Source: a bacterium
Lineage (GTDB): Bacteria; SZUA-79; Acidulodesulfobacterales; Acidulodesulfobacteraceae
DNA: 64,000 bases
NCBI GenBank assembly: GCA_021795355.1
Contig: JAJYPL010000004.1
Coordinates: 1,467-65,466 of the forward strand
Direction of reading: 5' to 3'
The notes under the pieces were generated by a model. That model saw only the letters and a program-made list of their open reading frames with translations, was not told the origin of the DNA and made no database searches. Position 1 is the first letter of the stretch; each line of letters opens with the position of its first letter. Shown here in pieces: positions 10,095 through 62,243 of the stretch. A program made the position numbers and the translations under genes.

Positions 10095-11420
10095 ATGAGC
10101 AAAAATAACGAATATACCGACGAACTTGATTTTTTTATCGAAAAATACGGGCGCGATATAAATCCCGAAGCTATAATAAAAGAAGATATATTAAGGCAGG
10201 GGATTTCTTTCGGCGACGTCGATCAGGAAGAAAACTTTTCCGGCAAATCCTATTTTATTTTTTCGTTTAACGTCGATAACGACGGAGACGTAATTAATAA
10301 AAAGTATCCGGAAGAAATAGCCCTGATTAACGGGCCGTATAACCTCAGGCGCACTATTATATCCGTAAGAATCAATAAAACATCCCCGTATTCGGTGCTT
10401 TACGATAAAGAGTCTAAAGGTTACAAGATATACAAATACAAAGGAAAAGACCTCGATTATATAGGGGACGTGCTTTTTTCTCCCGAAAAATCTTATATGC
10501 TTAAAAAAACGGAATCGGGAAAATCAGTCCGCGACGCCGCGCCAACTATAGAATGGGGATACTTGATATATCTTGCGGTATTCAGGATGTGCCAGTATTT
10601 CGAAGACGGCAGCGAATGCGCATTCTGCGATATGAATTCCAATTATTTAAACCAGAAAAAATCCAATAAAAATTATTCCGCCGTAAAATCGGTAGAAGAC
10701 ATTTTAAGCGCCCTGTCTATTATATCGGATGCGGACGATTCGAATGCCGGCGCATATACCCTGACGGGCGGAAGCATTATAGACGAAATTAAATTTAAAG
10801 GCGATACCGAAATAGATTTTTACGTAAGATTTCTTGAGGCTATAGAGGATAAATTTAAAGGCAGATGGATCAGCAAAGTCGTCGTTCAGGCGCATACCAA
10901 AGAAAATTTAATGCGCCTTAAAAACGCCGGCGCCTACATATATCATACAAATTTTGAAGTATGGGATAAAAATCTTTTCGATAAAATATGTCCCGGAAAA
11001 TCTAAATTTATCGGGAGGGACGAGTGGATAAACAGGATAATAGATGCAGTATCGGTATTCGGAGAATATAAAGTTATACCTAATTTCGTAGCAGGAGTCG
11101 AACTTTCTAAGCCTTACGGTTTTGCCGATATCGACGAAGCCGTCAATTCGACCGCCGAGGGGCTTGATTTTTTTATGTCGAAAGGGGTAATGCCGAGATA
11201 CACTACATGGTGTCCTGAAAAAACGAGCAGGCTTGGGAAAATGGGGAATACTTCGGCGCCGCTTGAGTACTATGTAAAACTTTTGATGAAATGGCACGAA
11301 CTGCATTACAAGTACGGTCTGCCGGTTCCGGAAGGCTACGGCGAAGCCGGAGCAGGAAAAGCCGAATTTTCGGTCAGCGCATTTATGGACGCTTTTAAGT
11401 CAGAAGACCTTAATTTGTGA
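10095..11420 (+). CDS. radical-SAM-like protein with atypical cysteine spacing (function unknown)
   Basis: 441 aa. The only clustered cysteines are MCQYFEDGSECAFCDM (CX8CX2C). A downstream LTGGS motif and a TIM-barrel-like pattern are present. The family assignment is tentative. Confidence 0.4.
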   Translation: MSKNNEYTDELDFFIEKYGRDINPEAIIKEDILRQGISFGDVDQEENFSGKSYFIFSFNVDNDGDVINKKYPEEIALINGPYNLRRTIISVRINKTSPYSVLYDKESKGYKIYKYKGKDLDYIGDVLFSPEKSYMLKKTESGKSVRDAAPTIEWGYLIYLAVFRMCQYFEDGSECAFCDMNSNYLNQKKSNKNYSAVKSVEDILSALSIISDADDSNAGAYTLTGGSIIDEIKFKGDTEIDFYVRFLEAIEDKFKGRWISKVVVQAHTKENLMRLKNAGAYIYHTNFEVWDKNLFDKICPGKSKFIGRDEWINRIIDAVSVFGEYKVIPNFVAGVELSKPYGFADIDEAVNSTAEGLDFFMSKGVMPRYTTWCPEKTSRLGKMGNTSAPLEYYVKLLMKWHELHYKYGLPVPEGYGEAGAGKAEFSVSAFMDAFKSEDLNL

Positions 11421-11421
11421 C

Positions 11422-11446
11422 GGGGACAGAATTCAATTCTGTCCCC
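11422..11446. repeat. GGGGACAGAATTCAATTCTGTCCCC palindromic hairpin (terminator-like), copy 1 of 2
   Basis: Perfect 12-bp arms directly after the stop codon. A near-identical copy lies at 62021-62047. Confidence 0.7.
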
Positions 11447-11457
11447 GTATTTTAAGA

Positions 11458-11545
11458 GGAAAAGGTGTCAGATATTATTTTCCGCATACGAAAAAGTGAA
11501 GTAATATGAAAGTTGCTTGCGGAAAATTAATCTGACACCTTTTCC
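11458..11545. repeat. AAAGGTGTCAGAT...TTTTCCG inverted-repeat element, copy A
   Basis: ~28-bp arms (11458-11486 and 11518-11545) around a ~31-nt loop. The same arms recur at 43397, 59799 and 62065, and in short form at 13057. Confidence 0.75.
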
Positions 11546-11699
11546 GTTGAAAATTCTTACAAAATATGATATTATAAATAATGTTATATAGATATATAAA
11601 TATTTATATAATATCTAAAGCTAAAGCGCATTAAGGATTTAAAAGCAAAAAGATTAAAAGAGCATAATAAATTAATTAATTTAACAAGAGAGGTTATTT

Positions 11700-12674
11700 A
11701 TGAACAATGAATTCAGAGACGACGAAATGGACGGAAATAAAGATTACTACGAAGAAGGCGCAGATTCCTGCGGCTGCGGAAGCGGCGACGACGGGGAAGA
11801 TTCCTGCGGCTGCGGCGGAGGAGACGAAGAAGAGGATTCTTCCTGCGGCTGCGGCGGCGGACACGGGCATGAAAGCAAAAATCCCTTCGACGACCAGTCT
11901 CCCATAGGCGGAGTTAAAAATATCATAGCGGTCGCAAGCGGAAAAGGCGGCGTCGGCAAATCTACTTTTAGCGTAAACTTGGCGATAACGCTTGCAAAGC
12001 AGGGTAAAAAAGTCGGGCTTTTGGACGCAGACCTTTACGGTCCGAGCATTCCTATGATGATGGGAATAAATAAAAGACCGGACATTACTTCCAGCAATAA
12101 AATTGTGCCCCTTGAAAAATTCGGAATTAAACTTATGTCTTTAGGATTTTTAATTCCCGACGACGCTCCGGCTATTTGGAGAGGCCCTGTAGTAATGCAG
12201 GTTATAACGCAGTTTTTAAAAGACGTCGAATGGGGGGAAATCGATTTCTTGGTAGTAGATCTTCCTCCGGGCACCGGCGATATTCAGCTTACTTTAGTTC
12301 AGACGGTTCCTATAAATTTTGCCATAGTGGTTTCGACCCCGCAGGATATTTCCCTTATCGATGCAAAGAAAGCCCTTGCGATGTTCGATAAAGTCAACGT
12401 TCCCGTTTTTGGTCTGGTCGAAAATATGAGCTATTTTATATGTCCTCACTGCAATAAACGTTCCGATATATTTAAACACGGCGGAGCAAAAGCGGCTGCA
12501 GAAAAACTCGGCGTGAATTTCCTTGGAGAAATACCGATAGTAGAAGAAATCTGCGAACTTTCGGACAAAGGAGAACCTATAATGACGAAAGATATTCATC
12601 CTGAAGTTCAGAGCGTGTTTAACAAGATATCGGATTCATTGGTTTTAAGGGCAGAACAGAGAGTTGTTGCATAA
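11700..12674 (+). CDS. apbC: Mrp/NBP35/ApbC-family Fe-S cluster carrier ATPase with a Cys-Gly-Asp/Glu repeat N-terminal extension
   Basis: Deviant Walker A ASGKGGVGKST. CPHC motif (YFICPHCNK). The N-terminus carries three DSCGCG units. Confidence 0.85.
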   Translation: MNNEFRDDEMDGNKDYYEEGADSCGCGSGDDGEDSCGCGGGDEEEDSSCGCGGGHGHESKNPFDDQSPIGGVKNIIAVASGKGGVGKSTFSVNLAITLAKQGKKVGLLDADLYGPSIPMMMGINKRPDITSSNKIVPLEKFGIKLMSLGFLIPDDAPAIWRGPVVMQVITQFLKDVEWGEIDFLVVDLPPGTGDIQLTLVQTVPINFAIVVSTPQDISLIDAKKALAMFDKVNVPVFGLVENMSYFICPHCNKRSDIFKHGGAKAAAEKLGVNFLGEIPIVEEICELSDKGEPIMTKDIHPEVQSVFNKISDSLVLRAEQRVVA

Positions 12675-13042: not shown

Positions 13043-13056
13043 GAAAAAAGTCTGAA

Positions 13057-13090
13057 AAAAAGGTGTCGGATTTATTTTCCGACACCTTTT
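13057..13090. terminator. bidirectional hairpin terminator, short member of the GGTGTC(A/G)GA repeat family
   Basis: aaaaggtgtcgga / tccgacacctttt 13-bp stem flanked by an A-run and a T-run. Lies between convergent trxA and the CNNM gene. Confidence 0.7.
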
Positions 13091-13109
13091 TTGTTTTTTC
13101 TTTTTAAAA

Positions 13110-20339: not shown

Positions 20340-20599
20340 TAATAAAGAGCCTCCGTAAATAAATTTAGTATAGCAGTTTTAGTAAAATATTACGAAATAA
20401 TATACCATAATAAAAAAAAATATCAAAATTATCAATATTAAATACGGGGACGGAATTGAATACCGCCCCCGCCACAACTTGGGCAATAATATTTTTTTGA
20501 TAATATTTTCGGTTTATGATAAAATTATTCAGTATCTCAAAAATTAAATAAAATATAACTATAAGTCTCAACCTCAAAATTTTTAAAATTAAATTAAAT

Positions 20600-21197: not shown

Positions 21198-21289
21198 GGA
21201 GAGATGGCCGAGTCCGGTTGAAGGCGATTGACTCGAAATCAATTGTAGGCGAAAGCTTACCGGGGGTTCGAATCCCTCTCTCTCCGCCA
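21198..21289 (+). tRNA. tRNA-Ser (anticodon CGA), class II with long variable arm, CCA encoded
   Basis: Acceptor GGAGAGA/TCTCTCC. Anticodon stem attga/tcaat with loop cTCGAaa. Variable arm gtaggcgaaagcttac. T-loop GGTTCGAATCC. 3' GCCA. Confidence 0.9.
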
Positions 21290-21579
21290 TTTATGTCAAA
21301 AAAGTAAGAATAACAATAATAGGTATTAAAAGACGGTCAGAGAGGGATTTGAACCTCCGGTAAGGGCGTAAGCCCGCAAGGGGGTTCGCCGCTTTTAGCG
21401 TCCGCAGGACGCTCATCCCTCTCTCTCCGCCATTTATGTCAAAAAAGTAAGAATAACAATAATAGGTATTAAAAGACGGTCAGAGAGGGATTTGAACCTC
21501 CGGTAAGGGCGTAAGCCCGCAAGGGGGTTCGCCGCTTTTAGCGTCCGCAGGACGCTCATCCCTCTCTCTCCGCCATTTA
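21272..21579 (+). repeat. 143-bp perfect tandem duplication (2 units plus a 22-bp third core) seeded on the tRNA-Ser 3' end
   Basis: The core ATCCCTCTCTCTCCGCCATTTA occurs at 21272, 21415 and 21558. The two 121-bp intervening segments read identical. Confidence 0.85.
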
Positions 21580-29450: not shown

Positions 29451-29573
29451 AGGTGTGCGATATAAGCATGCAAAACCGATTTAAATTTATAGTCTAACTA
29501 CTATATAAAATATAAATAATAAATAACCTGCAATTTTGATTCTTCATAAGGATTAATCGGAGGTATGTACAGT

Positions 29574-31061
29574 ATGGCTAAGCCGAAAAGTAAATATAAA
29601 GTACCGGTATTGGACGGAAAGATTTCAATACCGAAAATAGTTCCCGGAGCATCGTCGTATGAACATATGATAGAAGCTCAAAAAGAAGATATGGAAGCGC
29701 TTGGTTTTCCGGCTAAATTGCAAGACGGATGGAAGGATAAAGCGCTTGGAGTATTTAAGCAGATTTTAGACCATAATAAAGCAGTAAGGGATTATATGGA
29801 TATATGCGTCAGGTGCGGCGCATGTACCGATAAATGCCAGTTTTTCCTCGGTACGTCCGACCCGAATAATATGCCCGTACAAAGGCAGGAATTGATGAGG
29901 AAGGTTTACAGATATTATTTTACTCCGTCGGGATTTTTTAAAAGCCTTTCTAACTCGCAGGAACTGACGGAAGAAGTATTAAAAGAATGGTACACTTATT
30001 TCTGGCAGTGTTCGGAGTGCAGAAGATGTTCTCTGTACTGTCCTTACGGCATAGATACCGCAGAAATAACTATGGCGGCAAGACAGATTATGGATTCAAT
30101 AGGTCTCGGCCAAAAATACACGACAGAAGTTATTCACAAGGTTTTCGTGACCGGAAATAATATAGGAATCCCTCCTGCAGCTCTAAGAAATACGCTTGAC
30201 GACTTAGAAGAAGAAATAGAAGAAGAAGGCGGAAAGGGCGTAAAAATTCCAATGGACGTAGAGGGAGCGGAAGTCTTGCTTGTCCCTCCGTCGGCCGATT
30301 TTTTTGCTATGCCCCATATGGAATCCCTGAAAGGATACGCAAAAGTGTTTCATAAAGCCGGTATAAGCTATACGGTTTCATCATATGCGTCCGAAGCCGG
30401 TAATTTCGGTAAGTTTATAGGAAGCTATCAAAACACAAAAGAAATAAATAAAAGGATATGGGATGAAGCAAGAAGGCTTAAAGTAAAGAGAGTTATTATA
30501 GGAGAGTGCGGACATGCATGGAGAGCGGCCTATATGTACTCGAATACCATGAATGGACCTTTCGATTTTCTCGATTCGAAATATAAACAGCCTACCCATA
30601 TATGCGAATTCACCTTAGGTCTTGTAAAAGACGGAGTTATCAAGCTCGATCCAACGGCAAACGACGATAAAATCGTTACGTTCCACGATTCCTGCAACGT
30701 AGCGAGAGGTTCCAGAATAGGCGACGTTGTAGGCGGCCAATTTACGATACCGAGAGAATTGATAAAAGCCGCCGCAAATAAATTTGTAGAATTAAGGGAA
30801 GGAACTACGAAAGAAAGCACTTTTTGCTGCGGCGCAGGCGGCGGACTGCTGACCGAAGAAGTCATGAACGTGAGGCTTGCAGGTTCAATGCCGAGAATGC
30901 AGACGGTTAAAGAAGCCGTAGATAATCACGGTGTAAATTTTTATGCCTTGATTTGCGCAATATGCAAGACCCAGTTTTCTAAGGTATTCCCGTTGTACGG
31001 CTTAGATGCCGAAATGGTGGGCGGTATTCATCAGTTAGTCAGCAATGCTATAATAATGTAA
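29574..31061 (+). CDS. dsrK: DsrK, HdrD-like iron-sulfur protein with CCG domains
   Basis: CVRCGACTDKC and CSECRRCSLYCP ferredoxin motifs. CCG-type motifs (FHDSCN, TFCCGAGGG). Start taken at the second ATG, 10 nt from GGAGG; the track start is 29565. Confidence 0.85.
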   Translation: MAKPKSKYKVPVLDGKISIPKIVPGASSYEHMIEAQKEDMEALGFPAKLQDGWKDKALGVFKQILDHNKAVRDYMDICVRCGACTDKCQFFLGTSDPNNMPVQRQELMRKVYRYYFTPSGFFKSLSNSQELTEEVLKEWYTYFWQCSECRRCSLYCPYGIDTAEITMAARQIMDSIGLGQKYTTEVIHKVFVTGNNIGIPPAALRNTLDDLEEEIEEEGGKGVKIPMDVEGAEVLLVPPSADFFAMPHMESLKGYAKVFHKAGISYTVSSYASEAGNFGKFIGSYQNTKEINKRIWDEARRLKVKRVIIGECGHAWRAAYMYSNTMNGPFDFLDSKYKQPTHICEFTLGLVKDGVIKLDPTANDDKIVTFHDSCNVARGSRIGDVVGGQFTIPRELIKAAANKFVELREGTTKESTFCCGAGGGLLTEEVMNVRLAGSMPRMQTVKEAVDNHGVNFYALICAICKTQFSKVFPLYGLDAEMVGGIHQLVSNAIIM

Positions 31062-31069
31062 AAAAATAC

Positions 31070-31193
31070 GGAATTATGCACTTGACAAAGCAATACTTGG
31101 TATTTGTCATACAATAACTATGGGATTGGCGAGCTTCGCTGGACTTAGTCCGCTAACTACGAAGCAATATCACTTTGTCAAGTGCATAATTCC
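31070..31193. mobile_element. 124-bp MITE-like element with perfect 21-bp terminal inverted repeats, copy 1
   Basis: GGAATTATGCACTTGACAAAG (31070-31090) and its exact reverse complement (31173-31193). The second copy at 57677-57798 is in the inverse orientation. Confidence 0.55.
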
Positions 31194-31227
31194 TAAATAA
31201 TAAATTAAATTATTAATGGAGGAACTA

Positions 31228-31578
31228 ATGAAATTAGGCATTCTTATTAAAGAAGGCCCTTATATGCATCAGGCTATGGACACGGCCTATAATTTTATAT
31301 TAGCGGCTATGGAAAGCGGACATGAAATAACGGGCATATTTTTTTATAACGACGGAGTTTATAACAGATGTGCAACGCTTGAACCTCCAAGAGACGAAAG
31401 GAATATCATGAAACTCCTTACGGAATTAGAATTGAAAGGAGTCAGATTAATAGTCTGCGTTGCGGCTGGGAAAAGAAGAGGCATAGTAAATCAGACGGTA
31501 TGCAAAGTGGAAGAAATATCGGGACTTGGACAACTGCTCGAACTCTGCATAACATCCGACAGAACTATAACTTTTTAA
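31228..31578 (+). CDS. dsrE: DsrE sulfurtransferase subunit
   Basis: EGPYMHQAMDTAYNF, FFYNDGV, VCVAAGKRRGI and ISGLGQL align closely with Allochromatium DsrE. Start at the ATG 5 nt after GGAGG. Confidence 0.9.
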   Translation: MKLGILIKEGPYMHQAMDTAYNFILAAMESGHEITGIFFYNDGVYNRCATLEPPRDERNIMKLLTELELKGVRLIVCVAAGKRRGIVNQTVCKVEEISGLGQLLELCITSDRTITF

Positions 31579-43381: not shown

Positions 43382-43396
43382 ATTTTATTTTTTTTT

Positions 43397-43479
43397 AAAG
43401 GTGTCAGATTAATTTTCCGCAATGACCTTTATATAAAATATTTATATTTCAGGTGCGGAAAATAAAATTTGACACCTTT
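43397..43479. repeat. AAAGGTGTCAGAT...TTTTCCG inverted-repeat element, copy C
   Basis: Arms at 43397-43421 and 43454-43479. An extra partial arm, ctcaccttttcc, lies at 43484-43495. Confidence 0.7.
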
Positions 43480-43518
43480 TCCGCTCACCTTTTCCATTTA
43501 TGTTCATCCGGACTTTAA

Positions 43519-56421: not shown

Positions 56422-57663
56422 ATGAAGCTTTACGAATACGAAACTTATGATACCATATTTAAAAAATACGGCGTGCCTACGCCTAAATATTTAGTAGTCC
56501 AGCATCCGGGGCAGAACGTCGAAGATTTTGTGGAACAGTACGGCGAAGTCGTCATAAAATCTCAGGTTCTGGTAGGCAAAAGGGGCAAGGCGGGCGCCGT
56601 AAAGTTTGCAAAAAACGGCGACGAAGCAAACGAACATGTTCAGGCATTAATGGAAGCCGAGGTTTACGGAGAAAAACCCGTAAGCGTAATTCTTCAGGAA
56701 AAAGCATCTATATTAAAGGAATTATACGTAAGTTTTACATATTCTTCAAAGCCGAGGCGTCCGGTCTTCGTAGTTTCTCTCGAAGGCGGAATGGACGTCG
56801 AGGCGCAGGATCCTTCTAAAATATTTACTTTCGAGATAAATCCGCTCGAAGGACTGTTTCCTTATAAAGTCAGGGAATATCTTATTGAAATAGGGCTTGA
56901 AGACAGGCCTGTATTAAGGCAGATGTCGGAAGTAATAGCCAACATGTATAAAGGATTTTGGAATTCGGAAGCAAGGCTGATAGAGGTTAATCCTTTAATA
57001 ATAGCAGGGGACAAGGCAAATCCCGATAAGCAGAAAGTTTTTGCCATAGATGCCGTAACCATGATAGACGACGACGCCAGAATAGCGCCTTCAAAAATAT
57101 ACACCGCAAGAGGCGCAATGGGAAGGCCTCTGACGGAAAGAGAAAAAGCCGCCCACTTAATAGACAGGGATGACCACAGGGGAAAAGCAGGTTCTTACGT
57201 TGAATTAGACGGAAATATAGGAATGATGACTTTCGGCGGCGGCGGTTCTACTATTACGGCGGAAACCGTTTTCGCGCTGGGAATGAAACCCGCTAATTTG
57301 ACGGATATAGGCGGAAATCCTCCCGCAGAAAAAATGAATAAAATTTCAAAAATTATACTTTCCAAGCCGGGTTTAAAGGCCGTTCTAGTATGCGGCGGCA
57401 CTGCAAGCAATACAAGGATAGACGTTACCATAGGCGAAGGATTGGTATCGGCGATAGAAGAAATGAAAAAAGAAGGAACGTTTCCTGAGGGTATGATATG
57501 GATGGTAAGAAGAAGCGGTCCCGAATATCAGAAAGGTTTAAAAATGCTTCACGAATGTTTTCAGAGAAACAATATCGAAGGCGTTATATACGATTCGGAA
57601 CTTCCGCTTACCGAAGCTCCTCAAAAATTATACGAAATTTTAAAATCTAAAAATTTATTATAA
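56422..57663 (+). CDS. ccsA: citryl-CoA synthetase large subunit (SucC-like ATP-grasp)
   Basis: MKLYEYE...KSQVLVGKRGKAGAVKF ATP-grasp N-terminus. 413 aa. Clustered with a SucD-like gene and a short citrate-synthase-like gene. Confidence 0.75.
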   Translation: MKLYEYETYDTIFKKYGVPTPKYLVVQHPGQNVEDFVEQYGEVVIKSQVLVGKRGKAGAVKFAKNGDEANEHVQALMEAEVYGEKPVSVILQEKASILKELYVSFTYSSKPRRPVFVVSLEGGMDVEAQDPSKIFTFEINPLEGLFPYKVREYLIEIGLEDRPVLRQMSEVIANMYKGFWNSEARLIEVNPLIIAGDKANPDKQKVFAIDAVTMIDDDARIAPSKIYTARGAMGRPLTEREKAAHLIDRDDHRGKAGSYVELDGNIGMMTFGGGGSTITAETVFALGMKPANLTDIGGNPPAEKMNKISKIILSKPGLKAVLVCGGTASNTRIDVTIGEGLVSAIEEMKKEGTFPEGMIWMVRRSGPEYQKGLKMLHECFQRNNIEGVIYDSELPLTEAPQKLYEILKSKNLL

Positions 57664-57676
57664 ATTTTAAAAAATA

Positions 57677-57798
57677 GAAATTATGCACTTGACAAAGCGA
57701 GATTGGTTAGCTTCGCTGGACTTCGTCCGCTATCGCTCGCAATCTCGCCGTTATTGTATGACAGATACCAAATATTGCTTTGTTAAGTGCATAATTCC
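57677..57798. mobile_element. 122-bp MITE-like element, copy 2 (inverse orientation relative to copy 1)
   Basis: TIRs GAAATTATGCACTTGACAAAG (57677-57697) and CTTTGTTAAGTGCATAATTCC (57778-57798). The internal sequence matches the reverse complement of 31091-31172. Confidence 0.55.
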
Positions 57799-57847
57799 GT
57801 AAAAAATTAATTTAGTTGATTAAAATTATTTATTGGAGATTATTTAT

Positions 57848-58846
57848 ATGAAAGGCACTAAGTTTTTAAACGACGGAACCGGAGTCATAGTAATAGGCAT
57901 TACCGGAAGAGAGGCTTCCCAGGTCGTTATCGAATCGGAAAAATTATTTCCAGGCATAGTAAAATGCGGAGTAACGCCCGGCAAAGGCGGAACCGTGCTT
58001 ACAAACGACTGTCCGGTACCGGTTTTCGATACCGTAAAAGAAGCTCTTAAGGTTAAAGAATTAAAGCAGTCCGTAAATACCGGACTTGTTTACGTTCCGC
58101 CGACGTCCGTTTTGGATGCGGTTTATGAACTTATCGACAACGGCATTAAACTTATATATATAATTACAGAACACGTGCCTATCAGGGATTCTATAATAAT
58201 ATACGAATTTGCGAAAGAAAAAGACGTTACGATAGTAGGAGGAACTTCTCTCGGATGCTATGCCCCTTCTGTAGGCAGGATAGGAGCTATCGGCGGAAAA
58301 GACCCGAGCATCGCATTTAAGGACGGCTCTATAGTGGTGCTTTCGAAAAGCGGCGGACTTACCGTTACGACTTCCGAGATGTTTAAAAGAAGAGGCTTCG
58401 GAATTTATATGGCTCTTGCCGTAGGTGGCGACGTTATTGCATGTACTACGTTTGCCGATGTCCTTCCTGAACTGGAAAAAGACAAAAACGTTCAGGCATG
58501 CGTTATAATGGGCGAACCCGGCGGCGTTTACGAAGAGAAGGTTGCCGAACTCGTAGATAAAGGCGGATATACTAAGCCGTTGGCGGTGTTCGTAGCAGGC
58601 GTTTTTCAGGAGATGATGCCCGAAGGCGTTTCATTCGGCCATGCGGGAGCCATAGTCGAAAGAGGTATGGGCAAAGCCACGAATAAAATAAAGATACTCG
58701 AAGAAGTCGGCAAAAAAACAGGAACTATTAAAGTCGCCAAATTTTATCACGAATTAGTCAACTCGATTATTTCGCTCGGCGTCAAAAGAGACTTTGAAGA
58801 CGGTTCTTCCGACGACGTTAAGCCGCTTTACAGCACTTTAAAATAA
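57848..58846 (+). CDS. ccsB: citryl-CoA synthetase small subunit (SucD-like CoA-binding)
   Basis: GITGREAS CoA-binding fold, SKSGGLT, and the phosphohistidine loop SFGHAGAIV. Start at the ATG 9 nt after GGAG; the track ORF begins at 57833. Confidence 0.75.
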   Translation: MKGTKFLNDGTGVIVIGITGREASQVVIESEKLFPGIVKCGVTPGKGGTVLTNDCPVPVFDTVKEALKVKELKQSVNTGLVYVPPTSVLDAVYELIDNGIKLIYIITEHVPIRDSIIIYEFAKEKDVTIVGGTSLGCYAPSVGRIGAIGGKDPSIAFKDGSIVVLSKSGGLTVTTSEMFKRRGFGIYMALAVGGDVIACTTFADVLPELEKDKNVQACVIMGEPGGVYEEKVAELVDKGGYTKPLAVFVAGVFQEMMPEGVSFGHAGAIVERGMGKATNKIKILEEVGKKTGTIKVAKFYHELVNSIISLGVKRDFEDGSSDDVKPLYSTLK

Positions 58847-59793: not shown

Positions 59794-59798
59794 AATAG

Positions 59799-59885
59799 AA
59801 AAAGGTGTCAGATTTTATTTTCCGTATAAAAAAAGTTAGTTAATATATATAGCTGATAGCGGAAAATAAAATCTGACACCTTTTT
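59799..59885. repeat. AAAGGTGTCAGAT...TTTTCCG inverted-repeat element, copy D (perfect arms)
   Basis: AAAAAGGTGTCAGATTTTATTTTCCG (59799-59824) and its exact reverse complement (59860-59885), with a 35-nt loop. Confidence 0.8.
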
Positions 59886-59889
59886 CTAA

Positions 59890-62016: not shown

Positions 62017-62020
62017 ATAC

Positions 62021-62047
62021 AGGGGCAGAATTCAATTCTGTCCCTGT
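62021..62047. repeat. GGGACAGAATTCAATTCTGTCCC-type hairpin, copy 2
   Basis: acaggggcagaatt / aattctgtccctgt arms with one mismatch, directly after the stop codon. As at 11422, a GGTGTCAGA element follows. Confidence 0.65.
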
Positions 62048-62060
62048 CTATTAGTAGAAG

Positions 62061-62200
62061 AAAAAAAGGTGTCAGATTTATTTATTTAACTACTCCCGCT
62101 TTTTTCACATGACACCTTTTTGCGACACCTTTTTGTTTTTGTAGTTTATCCGCAAACCCAATCGGCAGTGAGCAAATAAATAAATCTGACCCCTTTAAAA
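62061..62200. repeat. AAAGGTGTCAGAT inverted-repeat element, copy E (expanded, with extra half-sites)
   Basis: Left arm 62065-62087. Matching right arm 62174-62196 (one mismatch). Two additional GACACCTTTTT half-arms at 62111-62121 and 62124-62134. Confidence 0.65.
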
Positions 62201-62243
62201 GACCCCTTTAAGAAGCCCGCTAAAAAAATATTTTTAAATTTAC

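Follow-up and report, generated by a model that had tools for sequence, protein, structure and literature searches.

A probable IS1595-derived MITE in the dsrK–dsrE and ccsA–ccsB spacers of a member of the Acidulodesulfobacterales

Introduction

IS1595-tied MITEs with 8-bp duplications, MITEs inside operons and MITEs that affect the fate of mRNA are all already on record. An 8-bp target-site duplication (TSD) is a hallmark of the IS1595 family (PMC8101967), and the MITE associated with ISHwa6, a member of this family in Haloquadratum walsbyi, is 165 bp long with 25-bp inverted repeats and 8-bp direct repeats and is present in seven copies (PMC3852290, Table 4). In Geobacter uraniireducens, a MITE named Chunjie (Chen et al. 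2008, cited after PMC10969869) is 178–235 bp long and occurs in 38 full and 57 partial copies, and the title of that study, as given there, refers to insertion into operons with the operon structure left undisturbed. Co-transcribed Correia repeats are cleaved by RNase III, and ERIC changes mRNA decay (PMC10969869).

Here, a 64-kb stretch of DNA from a bacterial contig (64,000 nt, 39% GC; hereafter the window) was examined. The gene content of the window agrees with that of Ca. Acidulodesulfobacterales, in which dsrEFH lie beside reductive-type dsr genes, the rTCA cycle is based on ccsAB and the GC content is 30–37% (PMC6776010). DNA similar to the window was found in mine-drainage and mine-tailings metagenomes. 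An earlier note on this DNA had drawn attention to a short element with inverted repeats between dsrK and dsrE, and had considered both a non-autonomous transposon and a domesticated intercistronic RNA motif. Contigs and loci outside the window are referred to by L numbers.

Two oppositely oriented copies in the window

The element described in the earlier note, 124 bp with perfect 21-bp inverted repeats between dsrK and dsrE, is present at 31070–31193, and the hairpin described in its core was also found (Table 1). The repeats had been placed correctly but the limits of the element had not, as the true ends lie one base outside the repeat in both copies. The second copy, which had been noted at 57677, was also recovered and spans 122 bp between the outer ends of its repeats. 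However, it is inverted relative to copy 1 (the alignment score is 148 for the reverse complement versus 75 forward, with approximately 82% identity), and its terminal inverted repeats, at 57677–57697 and 57778–57798, each include one mismatch. In total, the window contains four matches to the repeat at up to three mismatches versus none in 100 dinucleotide shuffles, and an nhmmer profile of the family found no copy or fragment in the 64 kb beyond these two. Only trivial ORFs of 20–27 aa overlap copy 1. Neither copy shows similarity to a transposase, and no transposase was found in the 64-kb window. The core hairpin, a central palindromic module, differs among members of the family.

Table 1. 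Positions in the window of the two element copies, the duplicated targets and the adjoining genes
Feature	Position	Strand	Remarks
dsrK (HdrD-like Fe-S subunit)	29565–31061	+	From ORF list; Pfam Fer4 families on identical gene in L099; stop codon TAA at 31059–31061
Target duplication, copy 1 left, AAAAAATA	31061–31068	.	L103 alignment ends at 31068
MITE copy 1	31069–31194	+	126 bp, non-coding
Left terminal inverted repeat, copy 1, GGAATTATGCACTTGACAAAG (21 nt)	31070–31090	+	Contains TTGACA at 31083–31088
Subterminal segment CAATACTTGGTATTTGTCATACAATAAC	31091–31118	+	Common to MITEs of related MAGs; includes TACAAT box
Core hairpin GCTTCG..GGAC-TTA-GTCC..CGAAGC	31134–31165	+	Central palindromic module
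Right terminal inverted repeat, copy 1	31173–31193	-	Exact complement of left repeat
Target duplication, copy 1 right, AAATAATA	31195–31202	.	7/8; L103 alignment resumes at 31197
dsrE (116 aa)	31228–31578	+	RBS GGAGG at 31218–31222, outside element
ccsA-like citryl-CoA synthetase large subunit	56422–57663	+	ATP-grasp_2, Citrate_bind
Target duplication, copy 2 left, TAAAAAAT	57668–57675	.	8-bp repeat at 1-nt offset
MITE copy 2	57676–57799	-	124 bp; repeats with one mismatch each
Target duplication, copy 2 right, TAAAAAAT	57800–57807	.	8/8; 8-bp repeat at 1-nt offset
ccsB-like citryl-CoA synthetase small subunit	57848–58846	+	CoA_binding, Ligase_CoA

Copy 1 is found within the same-strand cluster dsrM-dsrK-dsrE-dsrF-dsrH-sat-aprB, where the dsrK–dsrE spacer is 166 nt. 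The element and one duplicated target make up approximately 80% of this spacer, in keeping with the earlier remark that the element fills nearly all of it. Copy 2 is in the 184-nt ccsA–ccsB spacer, and ccsAB are followed on the 3′ side by a gene of the citrate synthase family, which from its position is citryl-CoA lyase-like, and then by a 318-aa ORF. Strand and spacing suggest that the dsr and ccs clusters are operons. The first nucleotide of the copy 1 target is the final base of the dsrK stop codon, and the copy 2 target starts 5 nt past the ccsA stop, with the next ribosome-binding site (RBS) 24–35 nt downstream of the insertions. As both copies are in AT-rich spacers, just past stop codons and ahead of the next RBS, neither insertion breaks a gene.

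Target-site duplication

No clear TSD had been recognized in the earlier note, but one is present at both copies when the extra base at each end is included, matching at seven of eight positions for copy 1 and at all eight for copy 2 (Table 1). The 1-nt offset was examined in 33 repeat pairs from all loci that enclose elements of 84 bp to 4.4 kb. An 8-bp direct repeat at this offset was perfect in 21 of the 33 pairs and matched at seven or more positions in 24, and at an offset of 0 or 2 none of the 33 pairs had a direct repeat of 7/8 or better. For pure-AT octamer pairs at such a spacing in the window, a match of at least 7/8 is expected by chance in 5% and a perfect match in 0.8%. In full-length elements, addition of one base per end revealed duplications such as GAAAGTTT, AATTGGAT, GCGCAAGC, CAGTTGGG and CTTGCGGG. 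The duplicated targets are AT-rich, with a mean GC of 0.26 versus 0.50 in the host loci (p=1.3e-4), even in GC-rich hosts, and this target preference accounts for the landing of the element in AT-rich spacers.

Among 129 other ends, 93% have C or G as the outermost base. Each copy in the window has one atypical outermost base (T at 31194 and A at 57676), as do two MITEs in related MAGs (L041 and L097). This suggests that the window copies have decayed, and may reflect mutation of stranded copies in an AT-biased genome.

IS1595 family elements with the same ends

A collection of genomes from 185,579 species (596 Gb) was searched with the 19-nt core of the repeat, and 98 stretches were found versus approximately 9 expected by chance, a figure that we estimated from the information content. 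Some of the 98 are clearly chance matches, for example one within a translation-factor-like gene in Bacteroidaceae. The earlier note had suggested looking for a transposase with matching ends. Though the window itself contains none, in 40 of the 98 stretches the repeat is adjoined by a protein similar to the 313-aa ORF of L015, an IS1595-type transposase with a DDE_Tnp_IS1595 domain (PF12762; 3.6e-36) and an N-terminal Zn_ribbon_IS1595 domain (PF12760; 1.9e-13).

The transposase-encoding elements that share the terminus are 1.4–5.9 kb long, often include passenger genes and were found in MAGs of at least nine phylum-level groups. The host labels include Chloroflexia, Planctomycetota, Acidobacteriota, 'delta proteobacterium'/Desulfomonilaceae, Armatimonadota, Alpha- and Gammaproteobacteria, Latescibacterota, Verrucomicrobiae and FCPU426. 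Elements lying between a pair of oppositely oriented repeats in a single locus ranged from 84 bp to 4.4 kb, and one that spans L054 and L032 is approximately 5.9 kb. The transposases are only about 40–70% identical to each other. The terminal repeat is nearly invariant, even at partner ends that were outside the search pattern, though this comparison is partly biased by the way the loci were discovered.

In every feature tested, namely a DDE_Tnp_IS1595 domain, an N-terminal zinc ribbon and an 8-bp duplication, the parent elements agree with the IS1595 family, in which a zinc ribbon is found in all groups except IS1016. Going by the ISfinder end consensus 'GGnnATTAT' of the ISNwi1 group, they may belong to the passenger-carrying subgroup of the ISNwi1/ISNha5 type. 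Annotated relatives are named simply 'IS1595 family transposase'. An IS1595 copy in a Roseomonas plasmid, with a transposase that is 46% identical, has the related end GGGATTATGTATTTGACAAAC, and this copy supports a broader candidate end motif of GGnnATTATG..TTGACAAA. The terminus was not found in the plasmid and phage collections searched, nor was any significant match to the element.

In full-length elements, a TATAAT-like box lies 16–18 nt downstream of the TTGACA of the repeat and precedes an RBS and the ATG of the transposase gene. This arrangement was seen in L089, L032, L039, L050, L064, L012, L066, L077, L137 and L138. The spacing suggests that the terminus also provides the −35 box for the promoter of the transposase gene, and such a role may help to explain why the terminus is near-invariant across phyla despite transposase identities of 40–70%.

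Passenger genes were found in the elements at L137 (5929–9892), L138 (142–5389, also in L139 and L140), L015 (1672–3879) and L035 (851–3004). The passengers in L138 include a DndC-like protein (4.8e-62) and a HerA-type ATPase, and L137 includes a type II/IIG methyltransferase-restriction enzyme. Several of the passengers look like phage-defence cargo. The remaining passenger ORFs had no family match.

Intact elements as candidate partners

When the transposase of L089 was used as the query, at least 5,996 homologues were found at E≤1e-40. A precomputed DDE_Tnp_IS1595 assignment was present for all 120 homologues among the matches listed, and also for L137–L140. The contigs of two close homologues were found to contain intact elements whose ends are perfect copies of the 21-nt repeat in the window. 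L137, which is plasmid-like and comes from a MAG with the label 'Deltaproteobacteria bacterium', contains an intact 4.0-kb element with perfect 21-nt repeats and a perfect duplication (TTAATATT). L138–L140 contain an intact 5.25-kb element, again with perfect 21-nt repeats and a perfect duplication (AAAAAATA), within an AbiEii-like gene. L138 and L139 are from the same ENA sample series as the species of the window, and the GC content of the contigs L137–L140 is 0.37–0.38. Mobilization in trans by such intact elements is plausible.

Two apparent links of these contigs to the window were rejected. The left junction of L138 is identical to that of the window over 34 nt, but this is due to the same AAAAAATA target in an unrelated gene rather than to a common insertion site. 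A second repeat family (described below), used as a lineage marker, failed to place the transposase-bearing contigs in the lineage of the window.

Short members of the family in related MAGs

The MITE and the sampled full-length elements have only the terminal repeat and a few bases in common, so that none of the latter could have given rise to the MITE by simple deletion. Members of 84–207 bp were found at other sites in related low-GC MAGs (YF1.bin133, TL1-5.bin112, clean584 and clean576), including three on one 54-kb contig of YF1.bin133. These short members share both repeats as well as the subterminal segments, which are CAATAYTTGGTAT..ACAATAAC..GAGATTG next to one repeat and CAATCTCG next to the opposite one, and differ in their central palindromic modules. 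As this subterminal sequence was absent from the sampled full-length elements, the short form itself appears to have been copied. The copy number appears low, with two in the window and only two or three loci per related MAG. A member truncated at one end and fused to a different repeat was found in L074, L052 and L014, where the window has none. A scan of metagenome contigs with the repeat/subterminal junction pattern TTRACAAAGCAATRYTTKRTAT gave no information on copy number, as all 14 matches lacked the repeat and were due to chance.

Empty sites and fixation

DsrE orthologues of graded identity were taken together with their contigs and searched for the repeat at up to four mismatches. The dsrK–dsrE spacer is 45 nt in L103 (DsrE 94% identical), 62 nt in L104–L106 (85%), 71 nt in L107–L109 (85%) and 127–128 nt in L110–L112 (76%), and even at four mismatches no terminal repeat was found in the dsrK–dsrE loci of these four lineages. 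The alignment of the closest relative, L103, to the window breaks at 31068 and resumes at 31197, skipping the element and the duplicated target. At the second site, the syntenic contigs L074 and L052 (approximately 84% nucleotide identity) pass from the ccsA stop to the ccsB RBS in about 35 nt without the element. The AT-rich flanks at this site differ from those of the relatives by a further 20 or so nt, such that the empty site is not reconstructable base for base. A comparison of empty sites had been proposed in the earlier note, which held that conservation at orthologous positions in distant relatives would speak for a functional RNA motif. Four lineages were found to be empty at dsrK–dsrE and two at ccsA–ccsB, and at each site the element was absent from every related lineage examined.

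In L110–L112, the most distant relative examined, the place of the MITE in the dsrK–dsrE spacer (approximately 2373–2500, 128 nt) is taken by a GC-rich hairpin, CGGCGGCGGAAGTTC...GGAATTTCCGCCGCG, that is unrelated to it. Small elements of different kinds have apparently landed in this spacer in different lineages.

The element was present in every contig of the same species (at least 99.5% identical, from several samples), namely in 4/4 for the dsr site and in 8/8 for the ccs site. The empty sites in relatives, together with this presence throughout the same-species contigs, indicate that the insertions arose after divergence from the sister lineages sampled and have become fixed in the population sampled. 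The same-species contigs showed no polymorphism for presence or absence, and hence there is no sign of current activity.

One same-species contig, L100 (ENA ERZ27233564 k141_878684), is identical to the window from 31059 onwards (the element, dsrEFH, sat and apr) but has a different left flank (bases 1–512 of L100) that contains a DUF2442 gene and no dsrK. The join is exactly at the left end of the element, and is either the product of recombination between two copies or an assembly chimera formed at the repeat.

Transcription and RNA folding

The TACAAT box in the MITE is 22 nt from the TTGACA, a spacing too long for a canonical promoter, and scans with promoter consensus sequences found none in either copy. 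A terminator was also rejected, as no stem followed by a T-run occurs inside either copy. In the absence of a terminator and of a canonical promoter, the element is probably read through in the dsr and ccs mRNAs. In Rfam searches, only a tRNA passed the threshold in the whole window and there was no match to the element, for which the best permissive match scored 24 bits against a threshold of 97.

In the predicted fold of the transcript, the terminal repeats form a perfect stem of 21–24 bp in either orientation, with energies of −45 to −52 kcal/mol and z-scores of −6 to −9, and no shuffled sequence was as stable. The RBS of dsrE is outside the predicted stem. By analogy with the co-transcribed Correia repeats, such a stem could plausibly be a substrate for RNase III. 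Transcript evidence was sought in three small metatranscriptomes from one study, which did not contain the window's species at either site. A 183-nt contig from an RNA library (X22) matches the window only at 31068–31111 and then diverges, and so comes from another copy of the family.

Other repeats in the window

A second, unrelated palindromic repeat family with ends of approximately AAAAAGGTGTCAGATTTTATTTTCCGC has 11 end matches and five elements in the window (59795–59889, 11455–11548, 43391–43485, 62059–62202 and 13053–13095), and is thus commoner there than the IS1595-derived MITE. L074 and L052, in which the orthologous spacer is 45 nt, lack the copy found in the ccl–glpX spacer, and for this reason the second family also looks like a mobile MITE. 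Copies of this family are adjoined by a perfect GC-rich hairpin, ACGGGGACAGAATTCAATTCTGTCCCCGT, that is found three times (11420–11448, 20444–20472 and 62019–62047) and resembles terminators or REP elements.

After a tRNA-Ser(CGA) gene at 21198–21289 come slightly more than two tandem copies of a 143-bp unit (21272–21579). The unit repeats the 3′ end of the tRNA gene and also carries its inverted complement, and the array may have been left behind by recurrent integration or excision at the tRNA gene. At 11749–11865, three tandem units of 36–39 nt that include GATTCCTGCGGCTGCGG are 76–79% identical and probably encode a short Cys/Gly-rich peptide repeat.

Discussion

The element is short and non-coding, has terminal inverted repeats, is flanked by an 8-bp duplication and is present at two unrelated sites that are empty in relatives. 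We conclude, with a probability of about 0.9, that it is a MITE derived from an IS1595 family element that inserted after the species split from the sampled relatives. The non-autonomous transposon raised as one possibility in the earlier note is borne out by the transposase-bearing elements with matching termini, by the duplication and by the empty orthologous sites.

In outline, the zinc-ribbon/DDE transposase of a full-length element located elsewhere would recognize the 22-bp ends (C/G followed by GGAATTATGCACTTGACAAAG), and insertion into an AT-rich 8-bp target would duplicate that target. As the MITE itself encodes nothing, it would have been moved in trans. The element would then be included by read-through in the mRNAs of the dsr and ccs clusters and would fold into the predicted stem. 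The effect of the insertions is most likely near neutral and tolerated, though they possibly add an RNase III-sensitive site. A retained effect on mRNA processing seems improbable.

An alternative is that the MITE arrived by transposition and has since been kept because its RNA stem is a signal for processing or stability, for example an RNase III site. The stability of the predicted stem in either orientation, the position of both copies within same-strand gene clusters, their presence in all same-species contigs and the precedent of RNase III cleavage at co-transcribed Correia repeats (PMC10969869) are in line with such an exaptation. If so, expression of dsrMK could be uncoupled from that of dsrEFH-sat-apr, and ccsA from ccsB. 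However, the two copies are in opposite orientations and differ in their cores, relatives have the same clusters without the element, and species-wide fixation is equally expected of a neutral insertion. We therefore consider exaptation unlikely. Its more specific form, in which the stem has been co-opted as an RNase III site in polycistronic dsr and ccs transcripts, giving their parts differing stabilities and explaining the fixation of both copies, is likewise unlikely. Were it correct, the stabilities of dsrMK and dsrEFH-sat-apr, and those of ccsA and ccsB, would be set separately, and a mobile element would have rewired the enzyme stoichiometry of sulfur metabolism and carbon fixation in a lineage from acid mines that is uncultivated.

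A full-length IS could also have inserted at each site and lost its interior later, in which case the miniature form has never transposed. Ends and duplications of the same appearance would result, and full-length elements with these ends do occur in similar genomes. However, both copies in the window and the short members found in four other MAGs have a common subterminal sequence on both sides that is not in the full-length elements, and independent deletions would not converge on such a sequence, which makes this origin very unlikely. A native functional motif unrelated to transposition, such as the operator of a dimeric regulator, an attenuator or a small RNA gene, would suit a palindromic structure between cistrons of two central-metabolism clusters and an RNA-library contig (X22) that holds a family member from another site, but is already contradicted by the empty orthologous sites in all relatives examined, the flanking 8-bp duplications, ends identical to those around transposase genes in many phyla and the lack of any Rfam match, promoter or terminator in the searches described above. 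The domesticated intercistronic RNA motif of the earlier note is likewise not supported, given that at each site the element is missing from every relative examined.

The IS1595-derived MITE is an element of an ordinary kind with a clear mechanism of origin, and will not surprise a specialist. Its value is mainly in annotation and housekeeping, in that exact boundaries and the 8-bp duplication are now supplied. The insertions explain why one intercistronic spacer in the dsr cluster and one in the rTCA cluster are unusually long, and the analysis ties the element to a very widespread, unnamed IS1595 subgroup with an almost invariant terminus. In mine-drainage metagenomes, the presence or absence of the insertions can serve as a clean marker of strain or species. 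Assemblies may also break or be mis-joined at the element, as L100 may show.

Among known systems, IS1595 family members have a single transposase with a zinc ribbon and a DDE_Tnp_IS1595 domain and generate 8-bp duplications, as do the full-length elements with the shared repeat, whereas the elements in the window lack a transposase and are only 124–126 bp long. The MITE associated with ISHwa6 is similar to the element described here in being short, non-coding, tied to IS1595 and low in copy number, with repeats of more than 20 bp and an 8-bp duplication. However, it is archaeal and unrelated in sequence, while the family in the window is bacterial and has a variable palindromic core. Chunjie, as far as it is described in the source cited, is likewise a MITE known from within an operon, and its size variants have common repeats and duplications, but it derives from another parent family, is larger and is present in far more copies. 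Correia in Neisseria and ERIC in Yersinia are co-transcribed MITEs with long RNA stems, and provide the model for a possible role at the RNA level here. Their effects were measured experimentally, whereas that of the element in the window is predicted from folding, and their parent families, sequences and copy numbers are different.
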